IMG/VR virus record: IMGVR_UViG_2974646296_000001
Coordinates: 4,965 to 68,964 of that record
Source of the DNA: a virus
Taxonomy: Duplodnaviria; Caudoviricetes
Direction: 5' to 3' (one strand)
Length of the DNA stretch: 64,000 bases
Notes under the pieces: model-generated
What the model was told of the DNA's origin: nothing
The model's database searches: none
Seen by the model: the letters and a program-made list of their open reading frames with translations, nothing else
Made by a program: the position numbers and the translations under genes
In this document: in pieces, positions 4,807 to 55,189 of the stretch
Numbering within the stretch: the first letter of the stretch is position 1
Layout: every line of letters begins with the position of its first letter

Positions 4807-5013
4807 ATGGAATTACTACCTACTTATAAGTACCTTCAAGTACCTTTTTCAGAAAGTACTGTTTGGTTTTCTTTCAATGGGTGGGATGTTGGAATCTTAG
4901 ATATTTTGGATAGACATCATAATTACCTAAGAGTAGACCAAACCAGTGAAGAAGAAGCTCTATTAACTTGTTCGGATGAAAGATTCGAAAGAAGAACTAA
5001 ACAGGACAACTAA
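4807..5013 (+). CDS. Mini-ORF family member (MELLPTY)
   Basis: Family N-terminus and VWFSF motif. Confidence 0.65.
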   Translation: MELLPTYKYLQVPFSESTVWFSFNGWDVGILDILDRHHNYLRVDQTSEEEALLTCSDERFERRTKQDN

Positions 5014-31706: not shown

Positions 31707-31737
31707 TAGGGACTCAATTGAGTCCCTATTTTTATTT
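31707..31737. terminator. Terminator at the middle/late convergence
   Basis: TAGGGACTC-AATT-GAGTCCCTA between convergent genes. Confidence 0.8.
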
Positions 31738-34700
31738 AACTAAATACTTTAGCAGTGATGATATCAGGTGCAGCATTAATAAAGCTTTCAACTGGATTAG
31801 CCAATCTAGTTAATGGATTGGTTTCAATAATCATAGTTGAATCCATAATATCTGGAACATCACCAAAGAAGTTCTGTAGAAGCATAATACTCAATGCTCT
31901 TGCAGGATTCTCTAAGAATGTTTTAGCAATGATACGTTGTACACGAACCAAGTATTTACTAAACATCAACAAACCAAGGTCATTTAAGTATTGAATACCT
32001 TTGTGAGTAGGTAAGTCATAATCAATGAAGATATCCATTACTTGCCCTGCTGCTTCATCTTTAGCAATTCCCTTATTCTTAGTCATGTGCTGGAACAACA
32101 CATATCTAGCACCAAAGTCAGAGAACTGTGCAGCTTCACTTAAAAAGTCATACAGGTTAGAACCTTGCATTACTAATGCTTCTTTAAATACATCTTTCAC
32201 GCTGTTAGGAATACGGTTAGTTGCATCTTCTAAACGTTCTGCCCAGCTGGTTTCAGCATACTTACGTTTGATACGTTGGCTCAGTTTATATTCTTGAACT
32301 TCAGTATCTACATCCTCTACGATAGTTGATAGCAAACCAGCATCAATCAAATCAATTACTGGATTGTTAGCTAATCTATCTTCAAGCTGAACCAACTTAG
32401 ATTCATATACACTTCTCTGTGCTCTTGTAAGGTTAGCATTACTTAGTTTAAGTCTTACTTGTTCAGTCTCTTGGTTCAACTTCTTGTATTCGCGCATAGC
32501 TACAAATGAATCTTTATGACCTACGATAATATCTTTAATAGATACACCCATCATCTTTAGTAGAACCATGTTAGACACCATGTTACCTAATGTAACAATA
32601 CCTGTTTTAATGACAATGATATCTTTAACTGTCTTAGCTAATGCTTCTAAAAGTTCTTCTCCTTGTCTTACTCGCATTGCTGCTTTCTTACCGAAAATCA
32701 TATTAACAAACATTACAAAAGCTTCTTGTACTAAACCACGTTCAGCTTTAGATAACTTCCATAGGTTAGCTGCTGTATATTTGTGATAGCCAAATAGTAA
32801 GTCTACAGAGTCTTTACGAACCAACATAGAATCACTACCCCATACTTTACGAATCTCTTCTTTCATATCTTCTGGTAGCAGTCTGAATATCTCACGATAT
32901 TCTTCATTGGTTGATTGTGGTGAAATCTCTATAAACTCAGCTTTGTTAGGTGTGTTGGTATACATCTCTTTTAATACTTTAACGAGTTCTTTGTTCTCTT
33001 TCTTGATGTCATTCTTAACAGCTAAACCAGAGAACATAATACCCATCACATCATCAAAAGATGTATCACGTTGTAGAATGTCATTCTTAGTGTTGTCATT
33101 CATTACATAACGGTAATCAACAATCTCACCTGCTTCATTCACTAGGGGAACTGCATACGTAGTACTATCTAATGTACGTTTATTCCAATTAGCAGATACT
33201 TTCTTAGCATTCTTAGTTTTCCAAGTATCTAACGTACCAGTACGAGAACCATTGAAAGAACCAGTAGTATTCAAGGTTACTGATGTACCTCTTGCAGCAT
33301 CATTCAGCAGGTAAGCTACACCACCAATGTTAGCTGGTTGACCACCATGACCATTTACAAATAAGTATTTAGTTTCTGTATCTGGGTCACTTGGGTCTTT
33401 AGGTAAAGCTGAACCAATAGCATAACCTTGTGCTTCAAATTCTTCTTGGTCATCAATAGTACCTACTTTGATAGCAATATCTGGATTCACCTTATCAGTC
33501 ATAAATCCTTTTTGGATATGTCTACTGTTCTCTCTAAACTCTTCCAGAGTTTTACTACGAAACTCTTTCATTAAGTTCATTGTGAAAGTAATACCATTAC
33601 CCCCATCTGTTCTAGATACTTCTTTAGAAGCTAAACCATTAATTAAACGTCTGTGGTTATCGCTCAGATTGCTAATTGCGTAAAGAGAAGCTAACACATC
33701 AATTGTTGGTTCTGCTTGTCTAGCGAACGTAGGCATTGTTCTAGGAGTACCAATTGCATCTGCAATATTCTTAGCATTCATCAAACCATTAGGAATACTA
33801 GATACACCTGTAATCATAAACTTACCTAGGTTCTTAGCTTGTCTAATATAAAAAGCAGTATAACCAGTGTATTGGTTTAGGTTGGTTTCATACTGTTGAA
33901 TAGTTTGTGCTAAGTATTGTTTATCACGCATTAGTTCAATGATTTGGTCTTGAGAGAAATCATTGAACAATGAAGTGATATCTGTTTTAAGGAATGCATA
34001 AGACAATGCATCTTTCTCTTGAACAGTTAACTTCTCAGCAAATGCTTCATTGATAGTAGTTCTATAATTATTACGTACTTGCATACGGTATCTGTCGATA
34101 TTCTTGTTAGCTAAACGTTTCATATCATGTAGAACTGCTACAGCATTAAATCTACCTTTAGATTCAGTAACCAAACTTAAGAATAAGTTAGCAGCAGTAG
34201 AATTAGATTGTCTTAGTTTATTGTACGTTTCATTAGTAATCTCAGTTACTGTTTGAACCTTACCATTCTTAACAGCTTCTTTAATTTGCTTCTTAGTTAA
34301 CTTTTTAAACTTATCTAAAGGCTGAACCAAGTTACGTTCAATACCCGGTTGAACTCTATTAATTACTTCTTGTACTGGTTTAGTAAATACTTCAGTAACT
34401 CTTTCCATATGCTTACGTAATTGAGCTTTGTTACTACTATCAATACCAGCAAATGATTGGAATAGTTGTGCTAACTGTTGGTCTACAGGTTTACCATAAG
34501 TACCCAGTAATTTAGCATTAAGAGTGTTTAACAGTTTATTGAACCAATTGTAGATACCTTGAACCAATCTACCTAATGAACCTGCAGCTGTATTAAGTTC
34601 ACTAGCTTTGTTCTGGTATTCAATTTTCGACAATGCTTTTCTAAAGTTATTGTTAGTTAAACCAAGTGCTACAAACTCATGTAAGTAGTTAGATTTAGCT

Positions 34701-37700
34701 CTACCATTAACTACATTATCTCTTTTTGGTTCAAACACATGTTTGTATCTTTGTTCTGCTGCTTGATATTCATCTGCAAATCTTGGGTCAGATTCAAGCA
34801 TAGAAGGGTCATTCATGAAATCACGAACAGTTACTACTTTCTTAGCTTGTAACCATAGTTTGTATAGTTCATTACGTTCAGCATATTTGTTATCAATACC
34901 AAACATAGATACATTATGAACCAACTCATGAACAAATACTTCAGAAGCAGACATACGAATACCATTTGCTAATGAACCTGACAGTGGTTGTGAACCTTGT
35001 GTTTGATTCACAATAAACATATCTACACCATCAGTAGCACCAATAGTTTCTGTTTGGTCTGAAGCTCCTAAGTGTAAATCAAATGGTTGAACTACTTTGT
35101 TTACCACATTGTTTAATACACCCCGTAGATACTCTAAGTGTTCTGGTTCATCTTTGATTAAAGATACTTGTTGTAACTCATCAAATACTTGTTCTGAGTT
35201 ATAACCATCAATTCTTCTAGCTTCATCAAATGTGAAGTCATTTCGAATATCATTATATGCTGATGAACCAAGATTATTAGTAGGTCTTACATAAGCTGAA
35301 TCTTCACCATTAGAATATTGTTCACTTCTAACAATGTTATTCATTACTTTGTTTTTATTATTTACGTGGTCTTGTCCAAGGCTAGTAATGAAACTATTAA
35401 TGTCATTCAAAGTCTGTTGTAAACCACGTTGAGCTACCCACTTAGCATCTCTACCAAGTACAGTTTTAGCTGCTTTAATAATTGGTTCTTCTAATTCTTT
35501 AATATCACCATCAAAACCAGTAACTACTCTATTCAACATTACTCCAATCTCTTGAGGGATTGAGTAAAGCGAGTTAACAAGTAAGAAACCTTTGTTATAA
35601 GCTTCTTTAATTGCCTTAAAGGCACTACCAGCAATATAGGCAGCATCATGTACGTTCAAAATCCTAGCAATATTCATAATAACTAATTGAACAGCCGCAT
35701 CTATAGATTGAGTCATAGTAGGAATTGCAGCAGCACCCGGTTCACTATATGTACGTAATTGTCCATTAGTAGTTCTAGATTTCTTACCTGATTTAAGATT
35801 CTTTGGATTAATAGTTACTTGAACACTTCTATCAGTGATAGGTGTCATTTCATAACCAGACAACATCAAACCAGTCTCTAACTGTTTAGTTAAATCTTTA
35901 CTAGAAATCTTACTAGTAGCTGTATTCACAATAGGTGTAACTGTTTTAAGAGATTCAACTAAGTTCTTCTCTTCTTCTACAGTTAGTTGTTTATTACCGG
36001 TTTGTTTAAGAATCTCTGCTTTACGTTTGTTATACATATTCACAAACAAAGCATGAGCTAAGTTAGTAGCAGCGTTCAGTTTATTACGTGAATCAAAAGA
36101 TACTTTGTATTCTTTATCCATCGCTTCTTTCAATGGATTCTGATAAATACCACTAACTACCTTCTTGAAGTTCTTAACTTCATTTGGTCTAAGTTTAAAT
36201 TCTTTTAAGTCTTTAGTATTTCTAATTACACGTTTACTACCAGTTAAGTAGTTAACAATACTAAGTACTTCATTTACTTCTGCTCTTGCAGCTTCTTGAG
36301 TAAGAGTACGTTCAATTAAACCTTTATACACAGCTTCTAAACGTTCATATACTTTCTCAATACCTTGTGAACCAATGTTATCTGCAATGGTTCCAATTGA
36401 AGCCCCATAGATAGAAGTCATTAGAGGGTTCTTAGCAATGTTACGACCTTGCTTAGTTACTTCTTCTTTACCAGTAAGTTCATTTACTTTAATGAATGAA
36501 CCAAACAATTTAGATACTACATTATAATCTTTAGCATATTTAGCATCTTCCATTGCTTTAAGTTGAATAGCTTTCTCCCAATCTCTTGCAAGAGTCTTAT
36601 ATGAATCTTGGTTAGCTGGGTTAGCAATCCATTCGTTATAGGTAATATTTGAATTATAAATACCCATACGTTGAAGCATATTGAACATTGCTTCTACATT
36701 ATCTGAAGCAAACTGAAGAGTAGTGATAGCTACACCATTCGTAATACCATCCACTTCACGAGCAAGATTATGAGTAAATTCAGTAGCGTCAGATTCTTTA
36801 GCTAATTCATATTCAGCCATTGCTACAATACTCAAGTAACCTTTCATATTGGTTCCAATAGCTTTCACACCATCAGCAATAACTGTTTGTAGTTCCACTG
36901 TTAATTCACGTTCACCAGATAAACGTAATACATCTTTCATTGCATCAATCGCATTACGTACTTTTGGTTTAGCTAATTGTTTCTGTACTTCTTCCAAAGC
37001 TTTATCAGAAGCTAGACCATTCTGGTCAGAACCAAACTTAGGTACTTCTACATCTAACCCTTCACCTACAGCTAGTAAGAAGAAGTTCTCTTCTGGGGAG
37101 CCAAAAGTAAATGTAGTATTCCATTCACGGTTAACTAAGTAACGGTGAATCTTAGAAGCTTGTGGGTTAAATTTATTACCAATACCCATACGACCTTGCT
37201 TCCAAACAGTATGTTCTAAGTAGAAAGGTGTATTGATGCCCTTATCTTGTACTTCTTCATACCATTCTTGAGCAATCTCTAGTTCACGTTCAATACTACG
37301 ATTCTTACCTTCTACACTTGGTTTATTCACATCAATTACAGTATCTAGATTACTTACATAACCCATCATCTCTTTCTGTAATTCTGAGTTAAAACCAAAG
37401 AATGTTTGAACAGTATTCTCTCTAAAGAAATATGGCTTAGCTTGGTCAGCTTCCAATACTCTCTTCTGTGATTCAGGTACTTGTTGTACAGATTTAGCTA
37501 CTTTTAAATTACCTTTAACTGGTTTAAAGCTAGGCATTGGTCTTTCATAAGATGAACCAAACACATCCTGCATAAATGAAGATTGCTTTTTATTAGCTGC
37601 AAAGATGTTATCAATGTCGTTGGTTAAATCTAATTGCACCAATTGAAATGTAGTTCTATCACCAAGTTTCTTAATTGAATCTGGAGCTTCTGAACCATAC

Positions 37701-40700
37701 AAAGATTTAATCTGAGCGCCAGTAACACTCTCTGCTTCATTTAATACACCTGAGTTCTCTAGAGCTGAGTAAGCCCACAAACCAAGTGAAGTCTCTAAGT
37801 TAGTTTGAGCATCAATTGGAGCATTATTATCTAACTTAAGATTTAATGTTTTAAATGCAGCAGTACCCATAGAGTTAACTACTGATTGAAAACGTACACC
37901 TTTAGGGATTAAGTTATACAATTCTGGTTCAACATAATCTTCATCAGATAAACCAAGTAAACCTCTCATACTTTCTTCTGATTGGTAATTTGATTCTTTA
38001 CCTGATGAAACAATCCATTGATATGCTCCAGCTGCCATAGCAGTTTTTACATTCTCTGGTAGGTTACCTGATTCATCTACCAAGTACTGAGTAAAGTCAT
38101 TACCAATAAACTCTTTCTTAACTGCAAAGATTTCATCTAAAGCTTTACCAAATGAATCATTAAACTTAGTAAATTCAGTAGCTACTTCCATAGCACCAGT
38201 AGGAACTACAGAACCATAGAACTGTTTAAGAATATTTTCTGTATCTAGTTTTAGTTTAGAACTAAAGTTAGCAATCTTATTTAAAGCAGATTGTTTATTA
38301 CTTGGTTTGAAATACTCACTAACCAAGTTACCTTCTTTACTGGTTAACTCTTTAGCTAATGAATAATCTTTATCTTCAGTAATATCCAACGCAGGTTCAA
38401 CTGTAGTAGTCACTGGAGAAGCTTCAGCTTCGACAGGTGTAACTACGGAAGGTTGAACCGGAGTGTCAGTTACTTGTTCAACAGTTTCAGAAACAACCTC
38501 TGGTTGTTGTGGTTGAGTAACTTCTTCTACTGTTTGTTCACTTACAGTATCTACAATTGGTTGTTCAGTGGTAACTTCTTCAGTCGGGCTCTGAACAGCA
38601 GGTTCTACAGAAGGAATAGAAGAGTATTGTTGATACACTTGGTTCAACAGATTAGCTTCTTCACGTACTTTAGATACTAGTCGTTTAGAGTTATTGCTAA
38701 TCTTCAGTGAACCAACTTGTACTGGTTTACCAGTATTAGTTGCTTTAACCAATGCATCTTCTAATTGAGTAGCTTTACTTGTTTGTCTTTCAGCAAACAG
38801 TTTTAAACCTTCTAAACCTTTAGTCTTAATAGCTTCATCACCAGAAAGAATCATATTTTGGTAATCTTTAATACCAAGCATCTTTCTTTTAGTTTGTGGG
38901 TCTGTACCACCATTGATGATGTTATCTGATACCTGACTAAAAGTGCGTAGGTTCTTCTGAACTTCTGCATATGTTTTAAGTATTTGATTCTCTTCTTCAG
39001 ATAAACCATTATCAGCTTCTGCTAGAGCAATAGCTTGAGATTCAGATAAGCTAGTAGGGTTATCTCTAAATGAACCAAATACACGTCTAGCAGCTTCTGT
39101 ATCATTCTTTGTTGCTGCTTCAATATCATTGGATACCTGTTCAGCATTTACCACTGTAGGACGCATTGCACGAACAATTGGAGCTGCTTTACTAATTGAT
39201 TCTTCTAACTTAGGAACCAAAGTATCTAATTCTTGTAAACGAGTTTGTTCTTCGGGTGTACGCTCAGTCTTAGATTCAAGTTCAACATATTCATTGGTTA
39301 ACTGAACCAACTCAGCTTGTTTACTTAATACTTGTTCTTTAGCTGTTTCATAATTTTGAGTACGTTCTTCAGGAGTAACACCCTCTACCTGATTACGTTT
39401 AGACAAAGTATCTACAGAAGTATTTAAATCAAATGTAGGTGATTCAGTATTGGTTACTGGTTCTAAGTTACCAGTTTCAATAGCTTCTTTTTGAACTTTA
39501 CGTTTCTGTACAAATTCAGTGTTCTTTACTTTATTAGATACAGCTTCACCAGCTTTACCTGTAACTGCTTTAGCAGCTTCAATAGTAGGACGTACACTTG
39601 CTGCACCGCCACCTGCTAATGCACCCATTAAACCAGAAGTAAATGCACCTTTATAGTTAGGTTCTTCTAATTTAATTAAACTTTCTTCTACAATAGTTTG
39701 GTAAGCTTCAGTAGCAGCTTCAGTTAAAGAAGTAGTACTTACCTTTGCAGCAGCGTCTAAAGCTTTACGTCCTTTGGTTAATGCATCGAGTGCAAATAAA
39801 TCACCTGCTTGTTCAGCAAGTGTTAGTGAACTAGCTAACTTAAGTTGTTTTTGTAATTCTTCAGTAGTAGGTAATCTTCCATTCTTTTCATGGAAATCAA
39901 CAATTGCAGTTGCAAATGCATCTGAACCATAACCAATAGAAGATACTATTTGTAATGCTGAGCCAGTCTTACCTAACAAACCAAGAGCAACATCACCAAT
40001 TACTTCAGCAGTTAATTCACCTACAGCTTTAGCAGCAGCTAAGGGGTCTTCTACTTTATCAAAAGTATCAAACACTGCATCAGCAGCGCCAGCAGCAATA
40101 TCACTTACACCATCTAATACTTTACCTTCTTTAATCTTAGAGATAGCAGTATCTAGGGTTGCAGCAAACTTAGCATCAGCAACTTCAGCAGCTTTAGTAA
40201 TTACATCTTGGTTTTCTTTGTTAACAATGGATTCCAAGTTAAAGAAGTCTTTAATATCTTTCTGTAAGTTAGCAGCACCTAAACCATACTCAATAGCTTC
40301 TAGGTTAGTCTTACTACCTTCACGTTCTACTGATTGAGCTTCAGGAGCAACATCAACACCATAAGTATATGTGTTACTCATAGTGCCAGTTGAAGTTACT
40401 TTACGTTTAACCTTTTGGTTCAGTAATGCTTCATCTTTATCAATACCTTCATAGGTAGTACCACTATCCTTAGCATTACGATAACGGATATAAGCAGCTT
40501 TAGCTTCATCAGATACAGTAAGTAAATCCATAGTACCTAAACCAATAGGTGCTGAAACTACATAACCAACAGTCTCACTTACACCAGCTAGTGCAGTTGC
40601 AGCTACGTTAGTTAAATAACTCAAAGGATTATCTGTATCTTCTGCTAATAGTGCTTGTCGTCTTTGTGCTTCTTGTGCAGCAGCTTGTTGAGCACTTTCT

Positions 40701-40804
40701 ACATAACTAGTAGAACGTAAGGAGGCTAATGCCTCCTCACTTACTTTACTCAGATTTTGATTAGTACTTGCTGACAAGGATTCTAGAAAATCAATGCTTG
40801 GCAT
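31736..40804 (-). CDS. Virion-encapsidated RNA polymerase (N4 gp50-like), 3022 aa
   Basis: EVDGITNG, RNIAKNPLMTSIYG, NVHDA motifs; I saw no cysteine on reading; very large - strand ORF. Confidence 0.97.
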   Translation of the reverse strand: MPSIDFLESLSASTNQNLSKVSEEALASLRSTSYVESAQQAAAQEAQRRQALLAEDTDNPLSYLTNVAATALAGVSETVGYVVSAPIGLGTMDLLTVSDEAKAAYIRYRNAKDSGTTYEGIDKDEALLNQKVKRKVTSTGTMSNTYTYGVDVAPEAQSVEREGSKTNLEAIEYGLGAANLQKDIKDFFNLESIVNKENQDVITKAAEVADAKFAATLDTAISKIKEGKVLDGVSDIAAGAADAVFDTFDKVEDPLAAAKAVGELTAEVIGDVALGLLGKTGSALQIVSSIGYGSDAFATAIVDFHEKNGRLPTTEELQKQLKLASSLTLAEQAGDLFALDALTKGRKALDAAAKVSTTSLTEAATEAYQTIVEESLIKLEEPNYKGAFTSGLMGALAGGGAASVRPTIEAAKAVTGKAGEAVSNKVKNTEFVQKRKVQKEAIETGNLEPVTNTESPTFDLNTSVDTLSKRNQVEGVTPEERTQNYETAKEQVLSKQAELVQLTNEYVELESKTERTPEEQTRLQELDTLVPKLEESISKAAPIVRAMRPTVVNAEQVSNDIEAATKNDTEAARRVFGSFRDNPTSLSESQAIALAEADNGLSEEENQILKTYAEVQKNLRTFSQVSDNIINGGTDPQTKRKMLGIKDYQNMILSGDEAIKTKGLEGLKLFAERQTSKATQLEDALVKATNTGKPVQVGSLKISNNSKRLVSKVREEANLLNQVYQQYSSIPSVEPAVQSPTEEVTTEQPIVDTVSEQTVEEVTQPQQPEVVSETVEQVTDTPVQPSVVTPVEAEASPVTTTVEPALDITEDKDYSLAKELTSKEGNLVSEYFKPSNKQSALNKIANFSSKLKLDTENILKQFYGSVVPTGAMEVATEFTKFNDSFGKALDEIFAVKKEFIGNDFTQYLVDESGNLPENVKTAMAAGAYQWIVSSGKESNYQSEESMRGLLGLSDEDYVEPELYNLIPKGVRFQSVVNSMGTAAFKTLNLKLDNNAPIDAQTNLETSLGLWAYSALENSGVLNEAESVTGAQIKSLYGSEAPDSIKKLGDRTTFQLVQLDLTNDIDNIFAANKKQSSFMQDVFGSSYERPMPSFKPVKGNLKVAKSVQQVPESQKRVLEADQAKPYFFRENTVQTFFGFNSELQKEMMGYVSNLDTVIDVNKPSVEGKNRSIERELEIAQEWYEEVQDKGINTPFYLEHTVWKQGRMGIGNKFNPQASKIHRYLVNREWNTTFTFGSPEENFFLLAVGEGLDVEVPKFGSDQNGLASDKALEEVQKQLAKPKVRNAIDAMKDVLRLSGERELTVELQTVIADGVKAIGTNMKGYLSIVAMAEYELAKESDATEFTHNLAREVDGITNGVAITTLQFASDNVEAMFNMLQRMGIYNSNITYNEWIANPANQDSYKTLARDWEKAIQLKAMEDAKYAKDYNVVSKLFGSFIKVNELTGKEEVTKQGRNIAKNPLMTSIYGASIGTIADNIGSQGIEKVYERLEAVYKGLIERTLTQEAARAEVNEVLSIVNYLTGSKRVIRNTKDLKEFKLRPNEVKNFKKVVSGIYQNPLKEAMDKEYKVSFDSRNKLNAATNLAHALFVNMYNKRKAEILKQTGNKQLTVEEEKNLVESLKTVTPIVNTATSKISSKDLTKQLETGLMLSGYEMTPITDRSVQVTINPKNLKSGKKSRTTNGQLRTYSEPGAAAIPTMTQSIDAAVQLVIMNIARILNVHDAAYIAGSAFKAIKEAYNKGFLLVNSLYSIPQEIGVMLNRVVTGFDGDIKELEEPIIKAAKTVLGRDAKWVAQRGLQQTLNDINSFITSLGQDHVNNKNKVMNNIVRSEQYSNGEDSAYVRPTNNLGSSAYNDIRNDFTFDEARRIDGYNSEQVFDELQQVSLIKDEPEHLEYLRGVLNNVVNKVVQPFDLHLGASDQTETIGATDGVDMFIVNQTQGSQPLSGSLANGIRMSASEVFVHELVHNVSMFGIDNKYAERNELYKLWLQAKKVVTVRDFMNDPSMLESDPRFADEYQAAEQRYKHVFEPKRDNVVNGRAKSNYLHEFVALGLTNNNFRKALSKIEYQNKASELNTAAGSLGRLVQGIYNWFNKLLNTLNAKLLGTYGKPVDQQLAQLFQSFAGIDSSNKAQLRKHMERVTEVFTKPVQEVINRVQPGIERNLVQPLDKFKKLTKKQIKEAVKNGKVQTVTEITNETYNKLRQSNSTAANLFLSLVTESKGRFNAVAVLHDMKRLANKNIDRYRMQVRNNYRTTINEAFAEKLTVQEKDALSYAFLKTDITSLFNDFSQDQIIELMRDKQYLAQTIQQYETNLNQYTGYTAFYIRQAKNLGKFMITGVSSIPNGLMNAKNIADAIGTPRTMPTFARQAEPTIDVLASLYAISNLSDNHRRLINGLASKEVSRTDGGNGITFTMNLMKEFRSKTLEEFRENSRHIQKGFMTDKVNPDIAIKVGTIDDQEEFEAQGYAIGSALPKDPSDPDTETKYLFVNGHGGQPANIGGVAYLLNDAARGTSVTLNTTGSFNGSRTGTLDTWKTKNAKKVSANWNKRTLDSTTYAVPLVNEAGEIVDYRYVMNDNTKNDILQRDTSFDDVMGIMFSGLAVKNDIKKENKELVKVLKEMYTNTPNKAEFIEISPQSTNEEYREIFRLLPEDMKEEIRKVWGSDSMLVRKDSVDLLFGYHKYTAANLWKLSKAERGLVQEAFVMFVNMIFGKKAAMRVRQGEELLEALAKTVKDIIVIKTGIVTLGNMVSNMVLLKMMGVSIKDIIVGHKDSFVAMREYKKLNQETEQVRLKLSNANLTRAQRSVYESKLVQLEDRLANNPVIDLIDAGLLSTIVEDVDTEVQEYKLSQRIKRKYAETSWAERLEDATNRIPNSVKDVFKEALVMQGSNLYDFLSEAAQFSDFGARYVLFQHMTKNKGIAKDEAAGQVMDIFIDYDLPTHKGIQYLNDLGLLMFSKYLVRVQRIIAKTFLENPARALSIMLLQNFFGDVPDIMDSTMIIETNPLTRLANPVESFINAAPDIITAKVFS

Positions 40805-50661: not shown

Positions 50662-50949
50662 ATGTTTGAGTCCATAGCTATTCAGGTTATAGCAGGGGTA
50701 ACCATTGCTGCAATAGTAGGTATCTTAGGTTGGTTTTTACTACTTAAGAAACTAGAAATAAAATTATCCCAACTAGAAGAGGAATTTAGTAAAAGTTTTA
50801 CCTCTATGGATAAACGTGTAGTTTTGCTTGAAGAACATCTTCGTCAACAAACTGAGATTAACTATTCATTACGTGCTGAACTTCAAATAATAAACGTTAA
50901 GTTTAGTAACCTTCTAGATAATCTTGATAGATTACTCCCAAACAAATAA
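50662..50949 (+). CDS. Membrane-anchored coiled-coil protein
   Basis: N-terminal TM helix followed by heptad-rich sequence. Confidence 0.6.
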   Translation: MFESIAIQVIAGVTIAAIVGILGWFLLLKKLEIKLSQLEEEFSKSFTSMDKRVVLLEEHLRQQTEINYSLRAELQIINVKFSNLLDNLDRLLPNK

Positions 50950-51251
50950 GCCACTTTTGTGGCTTTATTTATATATAAAAAATACCTCCACATGTGTAGA
51001 GGTATTTTAGGTTAGTTATTGGTTTGGCGGTAAAGTTAACTGCTAGCGGGAATATACATAATAAACCTATAACAGGTACCCCAAGTTTTGTAAAAGTGGT
51101 GCCTAACTGTTGTTTTGGTTACCATATCCAGTAATGAGCAATAGTATTAATATAAGTGATGTCAATATTGATTTCTATGTTGCCGAAACCAGAAAGTTGG
51201 TTAATGAACTGGTGTTAAAAAGCCCTCGTGATTGAGGGCTTTAGTTTTAGG

Positions 51252-51455
51252 TTAGTAACCAAATCTAGACATTACAGCCTGGTCAATGACGGTTTCTTCT
51301 TCCCAGACAGGAGCTATATATCCGTCATCACCCTCTTTTAGCAACACATCATAATCTTCTGGATAAACAGCGCGATCATGACGAACGGTGATTGTTGCGA
51401 TTTCTAGCGCCTGATCACGAGTAATGCCCGCTTGTTTTGCATCGGTAGGGCTGAC
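51252..51455 (-). pseudogene. Startless 3' gene remnant, probably the C-terminus of a former tail fibre
   Basis: Open - frame VSPTDAKQAGITRDQALEIATITVRHD...DQAVMSRFGY*, no start codon before stop 51477-51479; followed by a hairpin at about 51220-51245. Confidence 0.55.
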
Positions 51456-52055
51456 GAAAACCCTGCGACACGTGAATTACCTTGGCATAAAAACCACAGT
51501 GCTATCGTCGTAGCCAAAGCTGCTGAGGCTCATATGGTTTATGGTAAGGATATTACTCAGTTTATTATCAATCACGCTAAGACTGACCCTTGGGACTTCC
51601 TCCTACGGGTCAAAGCACCTCGGTCAGCACGTGTAGTAGCATGTGAATCAAACGAGAAAGTGACCACCGAGTACGTCGAGGATATCGATCTTGTTGAACT
51701 ACGTGACGGCGAAACCTTGGTTCCTAATATCACCCGTTACTACGCGAGTATCGACGGTGTTTACCTTTATAAGATAATGGCACCAACTGCTGTACAGATT
51801 GATAACTGGAACAACGTACCTCACTGGTATCACGTTGACACCGGTACTCACAAGTGCGCTAAGAAAGCACCTAGTGGTAAGTGGGTTGAGGGAACCAAGC
51901 CTAGTGACATGCCACCGATGATACGTATAGGTATTGACAGTGGAGTTAAGTTGAGACTATGTAACACTATTGTTGGTGAGTTAGCTCTACATTGTTTAGA
52001 CATTAACTATTACGTCAAACAAGCTGAGAAGTTGGTAATAAAAAACCCCTCGTAG
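51456..52055 (+). pseudogene. C-terminal fragment of a foreign phage DNA polymerase
   Basis: WHKNHSAIVVAKAAEA, DFLLRVKAPRS, NITRYY, DINYYVKQAEKL resemble the end of siphoviral family-B-like polymerases; no RBS and no catalytic core. Confidence 0.65.
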
Positions 52056-52079
52056 TGAGGGGCTGTACAAGATGTGGGT

Positions 52080-54506
52080 TTATTTAATCCTTTCTAACTG
52101 CTCCACTCTGTCCATCAAATCCTGTATAACCTTAGTTAAATAAGGTACGATTTTAGAGTGATCTACAGCTTGATAAACAGGCTCTCCATCTTGATTTAGC
52201 TCATCTTTAGTTCCTGTTACCGCCTCTGGAATTTGCTCAGCCAATTCGTGCGCTAAAAACCCTGTTGTAGTAGACCCGTCTCTAATCCAATCAAAAGTAA
52301 CAGGGTTAAGATTTTTTACAATGCTTAACGCATTATCGCACTCTCGAATGTTTGTTTTTAGTCTATAGTCAGAACTTGTATTGTATGCTGTTGCATTAGA
52401 GGAAACCGAGATACCACCTACCGCCGACCCATTTTTATAAAAAGACGTAACTGCGCCGTCAGTTCCTGTTCTGTTTAGTAATTGAATTACGTTGCTGTCA
52501 GATGATGCCCCAAAAGTTCCAGATGGAGTTAAAACAAACTTCCCAGAGCTTGATCCGTTGATCCAAGGTACATTGTCTGAATCATTCCTTAACCCCCCTG
52601 CATTCATAAAGATAGACTTGGCAGACGCTCGAGTTACAACGTCATCTTCCGTCCCAGCGGCGTAAAAATGAAAGTAAATGTTACCATCTGCACTTAAACT
52701 TAGACCACTAGCCGTGCCGTCAGATTTATACCGACGATGGTTATCAGCAGACTGATAGTTATTCCTGTCCAGTGTCAAATTCTTGCCGTTACTGCCCGAT
52801 ACAAAACAATAATCACCCAACTGTGTGAACACGGAGTCGGTATTGAGGGGTTTAACTCCATCCAATAAAGTTTCTGTGCTACCAAAATTAGTAGTTCGCT
52901 TCAGCAGTAGGTTATTGTCTCTGAGTAAAGGAATTTGGTTATAAACAGAGTAAGAATACTCTCCTGTATCTCTGTTTATTACTGTTGATGTTCCGTCAAC
53001 ATCGGCCCATGTACCACTGGACTTAGTAAAAGTATGATTTCCTGAAACTACACCAGAACCTTCGTATGACACAATGACTCGATCACCAGTGAAATCGCCA
53101 GTGCAAAATCTAATATGAACCTCTGCACCACGCTTTGCTCTCACCAAAACGTCTAAGTTTGTTACATCTATAGTTCGTGCTTCAACTTTAGATCCGTATG
53201 CCAAGATCCCGGCGCCAACAAATCCAGCGCTGTATTTAATGTTACTGCAACTGACTTCCCCACTACAAAACCAGTATGCCAAACCACCAGATTCACCGCT
53301 GTACAGCGGGGTGGTATGATCTATCGTAATATCTTGGGTGTTTGAACCCCCAGCGTTTACAAAGAAAATAGACCCTACCAATACATCATCGGGATTTCCT
53401 GTTGCACTTTTTATTGTTGCGCTGCATGGTTCATGTAAATTTTGGTTAGTTGCTCTGCTAGTTGATGGCACTTTAACATCTTCAGCCGAGTAGTCCCCCG
53501 GTTCAATTTCAATCGAAAATTTGAAATCAAGGTAACGTGGAAATAGATTTGCTGCTTTTTGTATCGTGGAAATCTGCGATGTAGACACAACGAAAGTCGT
53601 GTCTTTTTCATAACCGCTTACGCGCTCTTTGCTTAGTTCCACATGATTAGCCACTGCTTTAAAAGTTTCATTGTTGTTGGAGTCTTTTAAATATCCGAAA
53701 TAACTTACGTTAATATCATTTTCATAGGTACGACTCCACCCGCCCACGTCACTACTCGATTCAGCAAACCAAGTCTTAAGCTGACCTTGATCATTCCAAT
53801 CAGTCGGAAAAGGTCTGTTGGGGTCAATAAAAGTTCCACCATTGTGACGACCAGTACCCCATACAAACGTACCCCCACCCGATAAGTAATCAAGATCGTG
53901 GTAAGAAGCAACACTAACCTGAATACCTCCCACACCTACTAATCCTTGCAAGTCCTTAACCGTACCAACGTGCCACATTGCTCCATCAATAGCACTAGCA
54001 GGATGTGCCCCTACCTCATCACGATTATTCAACTTCGAGTGGTCGTTTGCATCAAACGGCCCAACAAAGGCTAAATCGGGCGTAGCTCCAGTAGGTTCGT
54101 AGGGCAACGTCGTGGTCGTTAGGGGTTTGTACGCTATGCCGTTATACACCATAAACTGATTGTACGCGGTGAACGTCTGTCCAGCTTGCCAAGAACCATT
54201 CCCAAGTGGAACTGCTTCTAAATCACTCACAATATCTTTAATTTGTTCTAAAACATCATTAGCTAAAATCGCACTATTATTTGCATTCTCCGCCGCAATA
54301 GGGGCATTTTTAATTTCATCTATATTTTCTGCACATGCTTTAATATTATCTAATTCTGGTATAAGTAAATTTACCTGAGTTAAGTTATCAGCTACGGAAG
54401 ACACTTTTTCTAAGTTGTCAGACACGTCTTTAACTTTATCGTAAGCTGACCCAATATATTTCTGAACTAAGCAATCATAAGCCCTACTGCTAGTTACTTT
54501 TTTCAT
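52080..54506 (-). CDS. Tail fibre/tailspike with C-terminal peptidase S74 chaperone
   Basis: N4-type start LVQKYIGSAYDKVK; SDYRLKTNI...GFLAHEL...VDHSKIVPYL. Confidence 0.9.
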   Translation of the reverse strand: MKKVTSSRAYDCLVQKYIGSAYDKVKDVSDNLEKVSSVADNLTQVNLLIPELDNIKACAENIDEIKNAPIAAENANNSAILANDVLEQIKDIVSDLEAVPLGNGSWQAGQTFTAYNQFMVYNGIAYKPLTTTTLPYEPTGATPDLAFVGPFDANDHSKLNNRDEVGAHPASAIDGAMWHVGTVKDLQGLVGVGGIQVSVASYHDLDYLSGGGTFVWGTGRHNGGTFIDPNRPFPTDWNDQGQLKTWFAESSSDVGGWSRTYENDINVSYFGYLKDSNNNETFKAVANHVELSKERVSGYEKDTTFVVSTSQISTIQKAANLFPRYLDFKFSIEIEPGDYSAEDVKVPSTSRATNQNLHEPCSATIKSATGNPDDVLVGSIFFVNAGGSNTQDITIDHTTPLYSGESGGLAYWFCSGEVSCSNIKYSAGFVGAGILAYGSKVEARTIDVTNLDVLVRAKRGAEVHIRFCTGDFTGDRVIVSYEGSGVVSGNHTFTKSSGTWADVDGTSTVINRDTGEYSYSVYNQIPLLRDNNLLLKRTTNFGSTETLLDGVKPLNTDSVFTQLGDYCFVSGSNGKNLTLDRNNYQSADNHRRYKSDGTASGLSLSADGNIYFHFYAAGTEDDVVTRASAKSIFMNAGGLRNDSDNVPWINGSSSGKFVLTPSGTFGASSDSNVIQLLNRTGTDGAVTSFYKNGSAVGGISVSSNATAYNTSSDYRLKTNIRECDNALSIVKNLNPVTFDWIRDGSTTTGFLAHELAEQIPEAVTGTKDELNQDGEPVYQAVDHSKIVPYLTKVIQDLMDRVEQLERIK

Positions 54507-55189
54507 ATCCAACCCCCCATACAAGGTTTAATGTTTCTATCGTAATCATTAGAATTCTCTGTACCTAGATTAATTTGTTGGGTACATAGCAACTCAAACT
54601 TCTGTAGCATTGTATTAGCTAACATAATATGTTCTTGGGTAGTACCCCCTGAATAAACCCTGTAAGCAACATAAGCTAATAGTAATGGTTTTAAATGTAG
54701 TGGTAAGTACAAAGCAGTATTTGCTTCATCTACTTTTGGATGTTTAGCTTGGTAAATAACAAACAATGCATCACCATCTACAGGTTGTGGTACTTCCAAT
54801 ACATCTATTGCAGGAGTAGCTACTACAGGGCAAGCTGTCCAATCATTCAAACGTATCTCATTACCTTCTTCATCATATACTGATAGAACTCTAATCAAAT
54901 CCCCTGTAAAAGGATAATCCAATACGTAATCAATATATTTATTGTAAGAAGGTAGTTCACCCTGTACTAAAGTATTTTCTACCTTTAACGGGTAAAGTGT
55001 TCTACCCTCAACTTGAATTAAAGTTAGTTCCCGAGTAAGTAACGGAAAACGAGTATACAGTTCAGTTAAACCAATATTAATACAAGCAATCAACTTACGC
55101 TTATTGTTCGCATCTAATGTACCCATGAACCAACCATGTTGTTGAAGTTCACCAATACTTAAATCAGTAATAATCTCATCTAAATCCAT
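54503..55189 (-). CDS. Head-tail adaptor-like protein (N4 gp67-like)
   Basis: LSIGEL, INIGLTELYTRF, DALFVIYQAKHP; position next to TerL. Confidence 0.8.
   Translation of the reverse strand: MDLDEIITDLSIGELQQHGWFMGTLDANNKRKLIACINIGLTELYTRFPLLTRELTLIQVEGRTLYPLKVENTLVQGELPSYNKYIDYVLDYPFTGDLIRVLSVYDEEGNEIRLNDWTACPVVATPAIDVLEVPQPVDGDALFVIYQAKHPKVDEANTALYLPLHLKPLLLAYVAYRVYSGGTTQEHIMLANTMLQKFELLCTQQINLGTENSNDYDRNIKPCMGGWI

Follow-up and report, generated by a model that had tools for sequence, protein, structure and literature searches.

Receptor-binding modules are swapped between phages, as in the fibre exchanges of P2 and the T-even phages. In the illegitimate-recombination model of phage mosaicism (the Hendrix and Hatfull school), joints are usually inferred at gene boundaries after selective trimming. 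A conserved N-terminal anchor with a swappable distal domain has been described for the receptor-binding proteins (RBPs) of Klebsiella phages (PMC8262889) and for E. coli tailspikes (PMC10408124). Here we analysed a tail-fibre locus in a 64,000-nucleotide (nt) stretch of viral DNA (IMG/VR record IMGVR_UViG_2974646296_000001, positions 4,965 to 68,964; hereafter the window), in which a fibre gene on the minus strand faces the truncated 3' end of a 'DNA polymerase' gene. Judged by its genes, the window is a Vibrio cholerae O139 phage of VchO139-I/JA-1 type (Pacinivirus, Schitoviridae), and its nearest relatives found were the Paciniviruses phi 1 and 12VC501. An earlier note, made from the sequence alone, had proposed a tail-fibre swap caught in the act. 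Our results suggest that the receptor-binding cassette was probably rebuilt through recombination with a family of ~45-kb Vibrio siphophages.

The plus-strand open reading frame (ORF) at 51432-52055 matched the PHROG 'DNA polymerase' family phrog_15833 end to end (E value of 4e-103), confirming its earlier reading as the C-terminus of a foreign polymerase. Homology begins abruptly at 51447, with the conserved K-R-I-G-A-Y motif immediately upstream lost, and ends at a TAG stop in a hairpin loop; we refer to this fragment, the 203 codons at the 3' end of a siphophage-family polymerase gene, as scar 2 (51447..52055, plus strand; JA1_0064/VCO139_0065). Whole-length family members have 674-747 amino acids (aa), and the 203 codons are therefore a fragment and not a member gene. 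The TTG 'start' at 51432 falls in the reverse complement of a minus-strand remnant described below. Over 201 aa, the fragment and the C-terminal polymerase ORF of phage vB_VpS_LMAVpS1 (LMAVpS1) share 73% identity. Its DNA is 76% identical to that of five ~45-kb Vibrio parahaemolyticus phages (the LMAVpS1 group) and 71-75% identical to that of many 42-47-kb Vibrio lentus and crassostreae phages; nothing resembling it was found in the rest of the window.

LMAVpS1 has a siphoviral layout: genes for a tape measure and a major tail protein are present, and a sheath gene is absent. At the loci of this family that we inspected (L002 and L006-L012), a 674-747-aa polymerase on the plus strand is followed by a convergent 625-1022-aa tail gene on the minus strand, the two lying tail to tail in L002, L006, L008 and L009 and ~0.9-2 kb apart in L007/L011, L010 and L012. 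The order in the window, polymerase end, hairpin and fibre end, is the geometry of this siphophage family. Both the protein identity and the convergent arrangement support the siphoviral donor that had been suggested, and the fragment comes from a family of Vibrio phages that is of siphovirus type and unrelated to the window's phage. In LMAVpS1 and four sister phages, the polymerase is annotated as two ORFs of 474 and 220 aa (L002:2518-3942 and L002:3947-4609), a region that forms one continuous ORF in five other family members; the two-ORF form reflects a frameshift or else a true split of the gene.

The fragment keeps all 39 residues that are invariant across six full-length homologues and contains no stop codon. 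Such an open frame with its 39/39 family-invariant residues, the annotation as a coding sequence and the separate 220-aa ORF annotated for the equivalent region of LMAVpS1 would fit the 207-codon ORF JA1_0064 being a domesticated, expressed gene. We consider this very unlikely. The first ~480 protein residues are missing, and the ORF could start only at a TTG that the junction produced and that has no evident ribosome-binding site. Three terminator-like hairpins stand upstream of it, where no promoter-like site is seen, and five other family members have the region as a single uninterrupted ORF. The remnants at this locus lie between terminator-like hairpins, and we infer that the polymerase pieces and the small-gene remnant next to them are inert, silent passengers.

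At its left end the polymerase fragment abuts another truncated gene. A minus-strand frame at 51255-51449 is open without any start codon. In an exhaustive phmmer search, its residues 2-65 aligned with residues 12-75 of a 79-aa protein (56% identity, E value of 3e-16), among 22 matches that were mostly 73-91 aa long. The frame shares the YP-DYD...GYI-P core of a phrog_30757-like family and covers family positions 12-75, identifying it as a 5'-truncated remnant of a small gene (51252..51446, minus strand, stop at 51252-51254; guanine-plus-cytosine (GC) content 0.446, CpG ratio 1.15) that is ~77 aa long when intact and has lost its first ~10 codons. The GC and CpG values of the remnant are foreign, too. 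The startless frame had been recognized correctly in the earlier note, but its interpretation as the end of the old fibre was ruled out, the remnant being unlike phi 1 gp085/gp086 and the 12VC501 fibre and homologous instead to the ~77-aa proteins. Small-gene homology stops at 51446 and polymerase homology begins at 51447, which moves the junction from its first placement at 51455 to 51446|51447. At this left join, two genes that have each lost their 5' end are fused head to head. Such a joint can have formed only in a genome with no need of either gene; it is thus illegitimate and arose in the recipient. Illegitimate joining had been proposed for this side and stands; the homologous exchange proposed for the fibre side was not demonstrated.

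Homologues of the ~77-aa protein lie directly after Mtd-like target fibres (PF21916) of diversity-generating retroelements (DGRs) in L014, L015 and L019, and directly after DGR-type reverse transcriptases in L016 and L021-L023 (L014:5001-5237, L015:4001-4234, L019:4001-4228, L016:4001-4219, L021/L022:4001-4231 and L023:1053-1211; all without a Pfam match). The remnant is best read as the final gene of an earlier fibre cassette. The family itself may be a candidate undescribed DGR accessory gene; no reverse transcriptase was seen in the window, where the ~77-aa gene occurs as a truncated copy only.

Right of the hairpin lies the fibre gene; its 814 residues are counted here from a TTG at 54524, the annotation having the gene start with an ATG at 54506. 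Codons 1-89 (54258..54524, minus strand) encode a Schitoviridae (N4-type) anchor. Residues 1-88 matched N4-like phages only (tblastn; 20/20 records, 59-78-kb genomes), bearing out the N4-type N-terminus noticed at first, and over residues 9-89 the identity to phi 1 gp086 is 51%; this part also aligns with a separate 140-aa anchor ORF of 12VC501. The gene adjoins a conserved 228-aa virion gene and the large terminase, as do the anchor fibres of Schitoviridae. The N4 gp66-type appendage gene likewise adjoins a gp67-like '30 kDa protein' and the terminase, a position matching that of the window's fibre; its N-terminus is weakly similar to this fibre, as seen with PDB entry 9lc0_A, with similarity gone beyond ~90 residues.

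Codons 90-814 (52080..54257, minus strand) form a foreign tail-fibre part, as delimited by its module map and composition. Module A (residues 90-184) aligns with residues ~50-140 of Vibrio siphophage fibres; residues 105-157 are 54% identical to residues 65-120 of the LMAVpS1 tail protein (E value of 4e-12), and the polymerase-adjacent tail genes that match the module include those of LMAVpS1 and L009. The presence of this module in fibres of the polymerase-bearing family supports the siphophage-type source proposed for the foreign part. Module B (residues 185-287) matches the N-termini of PF27114 tailspike-like proteins and is followed by a unique core (residues ~288-640) without a close relative among 5.8 billion proteins and, near the C-terminus, by an S74 intramolecular chaperone domain (residues 718-770, 52215-52373; PF13884, E value of 8.5e-13, 48.8 bits compared with a gathering cut-off of 22). 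The in-frame join between anchor and foreign part lies between codons 89 and 105 (~54210-54258), coinciding with a jump in GC content, and thus slightly beyond the right edge of 54200 first given for the block. Anchor and distal part are fused in one gene in the window and in phi 1; 12VC501 instead encodes its anchor in an ORF of its own (140 aa, L004:7564-7986), with a 749-aa S74 fibre gene (L004:5305-7554) after it.

Pfam matched nothing in fibre residues 100-700, and similarity to PF27114 and PF12708 proteins was weak (27-31%). A beta-helix fold of the core was left unconfirmed by AlphaFold2, with a mean predicted local distance difference test (pLDDT) score of 31 for residues 95-720 from a single sequence and 33 for residues 185-640 from a 7-homologue alignment. 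Searches of PDB sequences with the fibre gave marginal matches only (9lc0_A, '60 kDa protein', E value of 0.004), and the polymerase, the fibre and the small protein were all without a match in NCBIfam.

Base composition sets the same block apart. The block at 51253-54242 has a GC content of 0.432 and a CpG observed/expected ratio of 0.93 and ranks first among the 3-kb windows of the 64 kb, the others having a GC content of 0.343 ± 0.019 (maximum 0.389) and a CpG ratio of 0.49 ± 0.09 (maximum 0.72). This confirms the GC and CpG richness noted by eye for the fibre gene past its N4-type N-terminus. GC content at third codon positions (GC3) is 0.35-0.43 in the block versus 0.19-0.27 in core genes. 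The increase starts inside the fibre gene, at ~54240, the foreign fibre part having a GC content of 0.426 and a CpG ratio of 0.92 and the anchor a GC content of 0.341. That the rise merely reflects the amino-acid composition of the fibre has next to no probability, as the remnants outside the fibre likewise have elevated GC3 and CpG. Composition is even across polymerase fragment, hairpin and fibre, and the siphophage loci, with a GC content of 0.40-0.45 and a CpG ratio of ~1.0, resemble the block.

A second and shorter polymerase end lies further left. Scar 1 (~51143..51235, plus strand) comprises the last 25-30 codons of a siphophage-family polymerase and ends with a TGA stop (51233-51235) in a hairpin loop. 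It matches the extreme C-termini of four full-length polymerases of the family, best in L009 (residues 298-322 of 323, 56% identity, E value of 6e-7) and further in L008 (715-747 of 747), L007 (665-688 of 688) and L010 (649-672 of 674). It is short and its GC content of 0.35 is backbone-like, consistent with scar 1 being older than scar 2. The left hairpin at its end (51219..51242, shared with 12VC501) is not a native terminator; it follows this second polymerase-end remnant. Its similarity to the right hairpin, which terminates the fibre gene (52044..52064, minus strand), had been noticed before, with the left one placed at 51223-51241, and is confirmed. The two (-11 to -16 kcal/mol, z -2.8 to -6.5) contain the only CCCTC-N-GAGGG sites in the window, against 0.05 expected, and both are predicted intrinsic terminators with a GC-rich stem and a U-run, the latter on both strands in the left hairpin, which is terminator-like in both directions, and on the minus strand only in the right one. 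The two hairpins are alike because in both scars the last polymerase codons (K-[N/S]-P-[S/R]) build the stem, with the stop codon in the loop. We therefore read them as homologous scars of repeated imports.

Related scars occur in other phages. 12VC501 also has the scar 1 remnant and hairpin, followed directly by its own unrelated S74 fibre; phi 1 has neither, and its cassette directly faces the terminator of a conserved 95-aa ORF at the left flank. In VPALA and SUMAE, two further phages, a polymerase 3' end likewise runs on into the right hairpin (~83% nt identity). In VPALA (130 kb), a 180-nt polymerase end and matching hairpin (83% nt identity) face a tail fibre gene that converges on them and is itself a chimera, with a different anchor of tail-collar type and a match to a siphophage-family fibre at residues 268-361; SUMAE has kept the scar and has no copy of VPALA's tail fibre gene. 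VPALA (L025:3925-6979) and SUMAE (L005:3925-4348) are 99% identical on either side of the scar, and SUMAE is without exactly the 876-aa tail protein gene; the VPALA record, whose taxonomy is given as 'Viruses' only, may be a composite assembly. All three Paciniviruses compared (the window, phi 1 and 12VC501) have distinct cassettes with a GC content of 0.42-0.44 in backbones of 0.33-0.35. The two scars and the three differing cassettes mark the locus as a standing hot spot that has been hit at least twice in the window's lineage.

The left part of the locus shows some further features. Two terminator-like hairpins past the 95-aa ORF (50948-50965, bidirectional, and 50979-51008, minus strand) are shared with 12VC501. 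An exact 12-nt repeat, TTTTAGGTTAGT, occurs at 51005-51016 and 51245-51256, after hairpins 50979-51008 and 51219-51242, and may be a trace of the route by which scar 1 was inserted. A 110-nt stretch at 51037-51150 differs by an insertion or deletion from 12VC501.

Contigs from two DNA runs (two samples of one study, possibly the source data) cross every junction, and none has alternative joints. This reply to the concern that the locus could be an assembly chimera leaves that explanation a negligible probability, the more so as two isolates described in PMC3670811 have equal ORFs. With contigs crossing the junctions and JA-1 (isolated in 1992) and VchO139-I (1999) carrying equal ORFs, the arrangement is real and fixed and not an event in progress; 'caught in the act' was thus an overstatement. 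Compared with the contigs of runs X1 and X2 over 50900-54600, the window differs at four positions (53011, 53012, 53103 and 54013), all in the fibre gene and leading to two residue changes, V171A and T505V; the remnants and spacers are without differences. Under unconstrained substitution, the chance that the polymerase fragment would be found intact (39/39 invariant residues, no stop) is <0.08 at 2% and 0.002 at 5%, and the CpG and GC values of the block show no drift towards those of the backbone. The intact fragment and the undrifted composition suggest that the last import is young in sequence terms.

From direct observations, namely homologies, geometry, composition, junction positions and assembly contiguity, we infer a course of events, including their number, direction and order, the silence of the remnants and an effect on host range. 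In the siphophages, structural and replication modules converge, with the last tail gene and the polymerase ending at one hairpin. The inserted segment would span this convergence point and carry the post-anchor fibre, the fibre 3' end, the hairpin and the last 203 polymerase codons. Its fibre end would have been fused in frame, at codon 89-105, to the N4-type anchor already present, making the 87-kDa virion protein, put forward as O139 capsule lyase, a functional chimera. At its polymerase end, illegitimate joining at 51446|51447 would have fallen within the small gene ending the previous cassette. That cassette would have arrived in the same way, leaving the shorter polymerase end and homologous hairpin (51143-51242) at its left.

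We think it likely that the fibre and the polymerase fragment were imported in one event. Alternatively, the fragment and hairpin could have come with an earlier cassette and a later swap of the distal fibre, bounded on the left by the hairpin, could have followed, perhaps through homologous recombination of a donor polymerase end with the scar already in place. Comparison with other phages leaves room for this: 12VC501 and the window have scar 1 in common and unrelated genes directly after it, and VPALA has a polymerase end and hairpin like the window's and a fibre 3' end that is not. Two events are nevertheless unlikely, as they require an extra step, composition is uniform across fragment, hairpin and fibre, and the undecayed state of the fragment makes a much greater age than that of the fibre unlikely.

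Several observations weigh against deriving the whole cassette from the polymerase-bearing siphophages, beginning with these shared scars, since the differing genes to the right of the hairpin mean that the fibre could have been replaced after the polymerase fragment arrived. Module A is also found in phages that have no polymerase homologue (LP.1 and 1.291.O) and thus extends beyond the polymerase-bearing family, as two events would allow; the fibre is therefore not uniquely tied to that family. The fibre core has no relative, the only full-length match (residues 95-715) among the 5.8 billion proteins being its own cluster, and the S74 domain occurs in none of the sampled siphophage tail genes. 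No donor pairing the window's fibre with the window's polymerase was found; when IMG/VR and JGI metagenomes were scanned with the polymerase fragment, identity did not exceed 51%, and the best match overall was 73% at the aa level. Finally, the name 'DNA polymerase' comes from PHROG and GenBank annotation only (phrog_1252/phrog_15833); Pfam, NCBIfam and PDB do not support it, the sole Pfam match of the full-length homologues being a sub-threshold one to PF10108 (E value of 0.008). Weighing these points, we still favour recombination with the siphophage family.

Where the join took place is a separate matter. The anchor region (54271-54535) is just 63-71% identical to phi 1 at the nt level, whereas the adjoining gene and flanks are at least 96% identical, the GC content of the anchor (0.34) is backbone-like, and the three Paciniviruses have three different cassettes with a GC content of 0.42-0.44. 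The cassette could accordingly have been built in another, unsampled N4-like phage and then moved by homologous recombination in the conserved flanks. We hold this to be possible, short of probable, as the drop in identity can also be explained by fast divergence of the anchor under selection; such an origin would alter the site of the cross-family join, not its occurrence.

More tentatively still, the junction of polymerase end, terminator and fibre end in the siphophages might be a recurrent export point for receptor-binding modules, with a resident polymerase-end scar able to serve as a homology arm for later swaps and with the O139 fibre being very recent. The three scars, two nested here (one of them common to 12VC501) and one in VPALA/SUMAE, are the basis for this doubtful extension. 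If it were true, less than ~2% neutral change would have accumulated since the fragment left a working gene, and acquisition of the fibre could coincide with the emergence of serogroup O139.

The assignment of the window is borne out by its genes, which include a virion RNA polymerase gene (31736-40804, 9069 nt), a portal gene of N4 type and a large-terminase gene into which an intein is inserted. The predicted masses at the locus (10.93, 23.36, 87.43 and 25.88 kDa) and the ORF lengths match those of VchO139-I in Table S1 of PMC3670811. The variable locus is flanked on the left by a conserved 95-aa backbone ORF (JA1_0063/VCO139_0064, 50662..50949, plus strand; phrog_18138), which is ~93-97% identical at the nt level to phi 1 and 12VC501 and at whose end, 50949, similarity to phi 1 stops. 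On the right lies the conserved 228-aa virion structural gene (54503..55189, minus strand; phrog_2125), 96.5% identical at the aa level to phi 1 and 90.8% to 12VC501 and found across N4-like phages.

Gene content between portal and terminase had been described as variable (PMC3670811). In that work (Fouts et al. 2013), JA1_0065/VCO139_0066 is a 2427-nt gene whose 87-kDa virion product was identified by mass fingerprinting, contains pfam13884 and was put forward as the O139 capsule lyase, and JA1_0064/VCO139_0065 is a 624-nt gene annotated as 'hypothetical protein'. ORF sizes at the locus are equal in both isolates (Table S1), and five of the six differences between the JA-1 and VchO139-I fibres are non-synonymous. 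A term search of its main text and supplement found no mention of the polymerase fragment, the remnants, the compositional island or a siphophage origin. The genes are identical in the published annotation and here; the reading of the 624-nt ORF as a polymerase fragment is added by the present analysis.

A lyase associated with JA-1 and a strict dependence on O139 and its capsule have been reported (PMC3670811). Because of this literature, the presence of the protein in virions and its standing as the sole receptor-binding candidate at the locus, the foreign fibre part is likely to be a module that binds and degrades the O139 capsule, as a prediction. A cross-family host-range switch, as proposed in the earlier note, is plausible. 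The virion band assigned to the fibre in PMC3670811, 87 kDa, corresponds to the uncleaved mass, though S74 domains are usually removed after folding.

Fibre exchange is usually inferred from protein mosaicism alone, leaving donor, direction and mechanism unknown. Here the passenger polymerase ends name the donor family, put the recombination endpoints outside the fibre gene, date the last event as recent and show at least two hits at the locus. The phage concerned defines O139-specific typing, and the search for its capsule lyase gene goes back to 2001; fibre codons 90-814 are a candidate for the lyase module. Truncated polymerase ends beside fibre terminators also suggest a search rule that could trace routes of host-range gene flow among Vibrio phages.

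Compared with modular RBP exchange as known elsewhere, the window likewise keeps its anchor, here N4-type, and has its distal specificity part replaced, with the boundary right after the anchor; the anchor is even a separate 140-aa ORF in 12VC501, and the fibre carries a C-terminal S74 chaperone, as do many exchangeable fibres. Unlike in the usual exchange, the imported DNA overshoots the fibre gene into the 3' end of the neighbouring donor gene, which therefore tells both what family the donor belonged to and which way round its segment lay, and two nested scars mark successive imports. As in the illegitimate-recombination model, the left joint lies at an arbitrary intragenic position, was tolerated in dispensable DNA and left truncated pieces; unlike in the usual cases of that model, the untrimmed intragenic joints are still visible. 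Fibre swapping is ordinary, and a footprint of such clarity is unusual: the locus represents a known process, cross-family exchange of a receptor-binding module, with an unusually complete footprint, and not a new kind of system.

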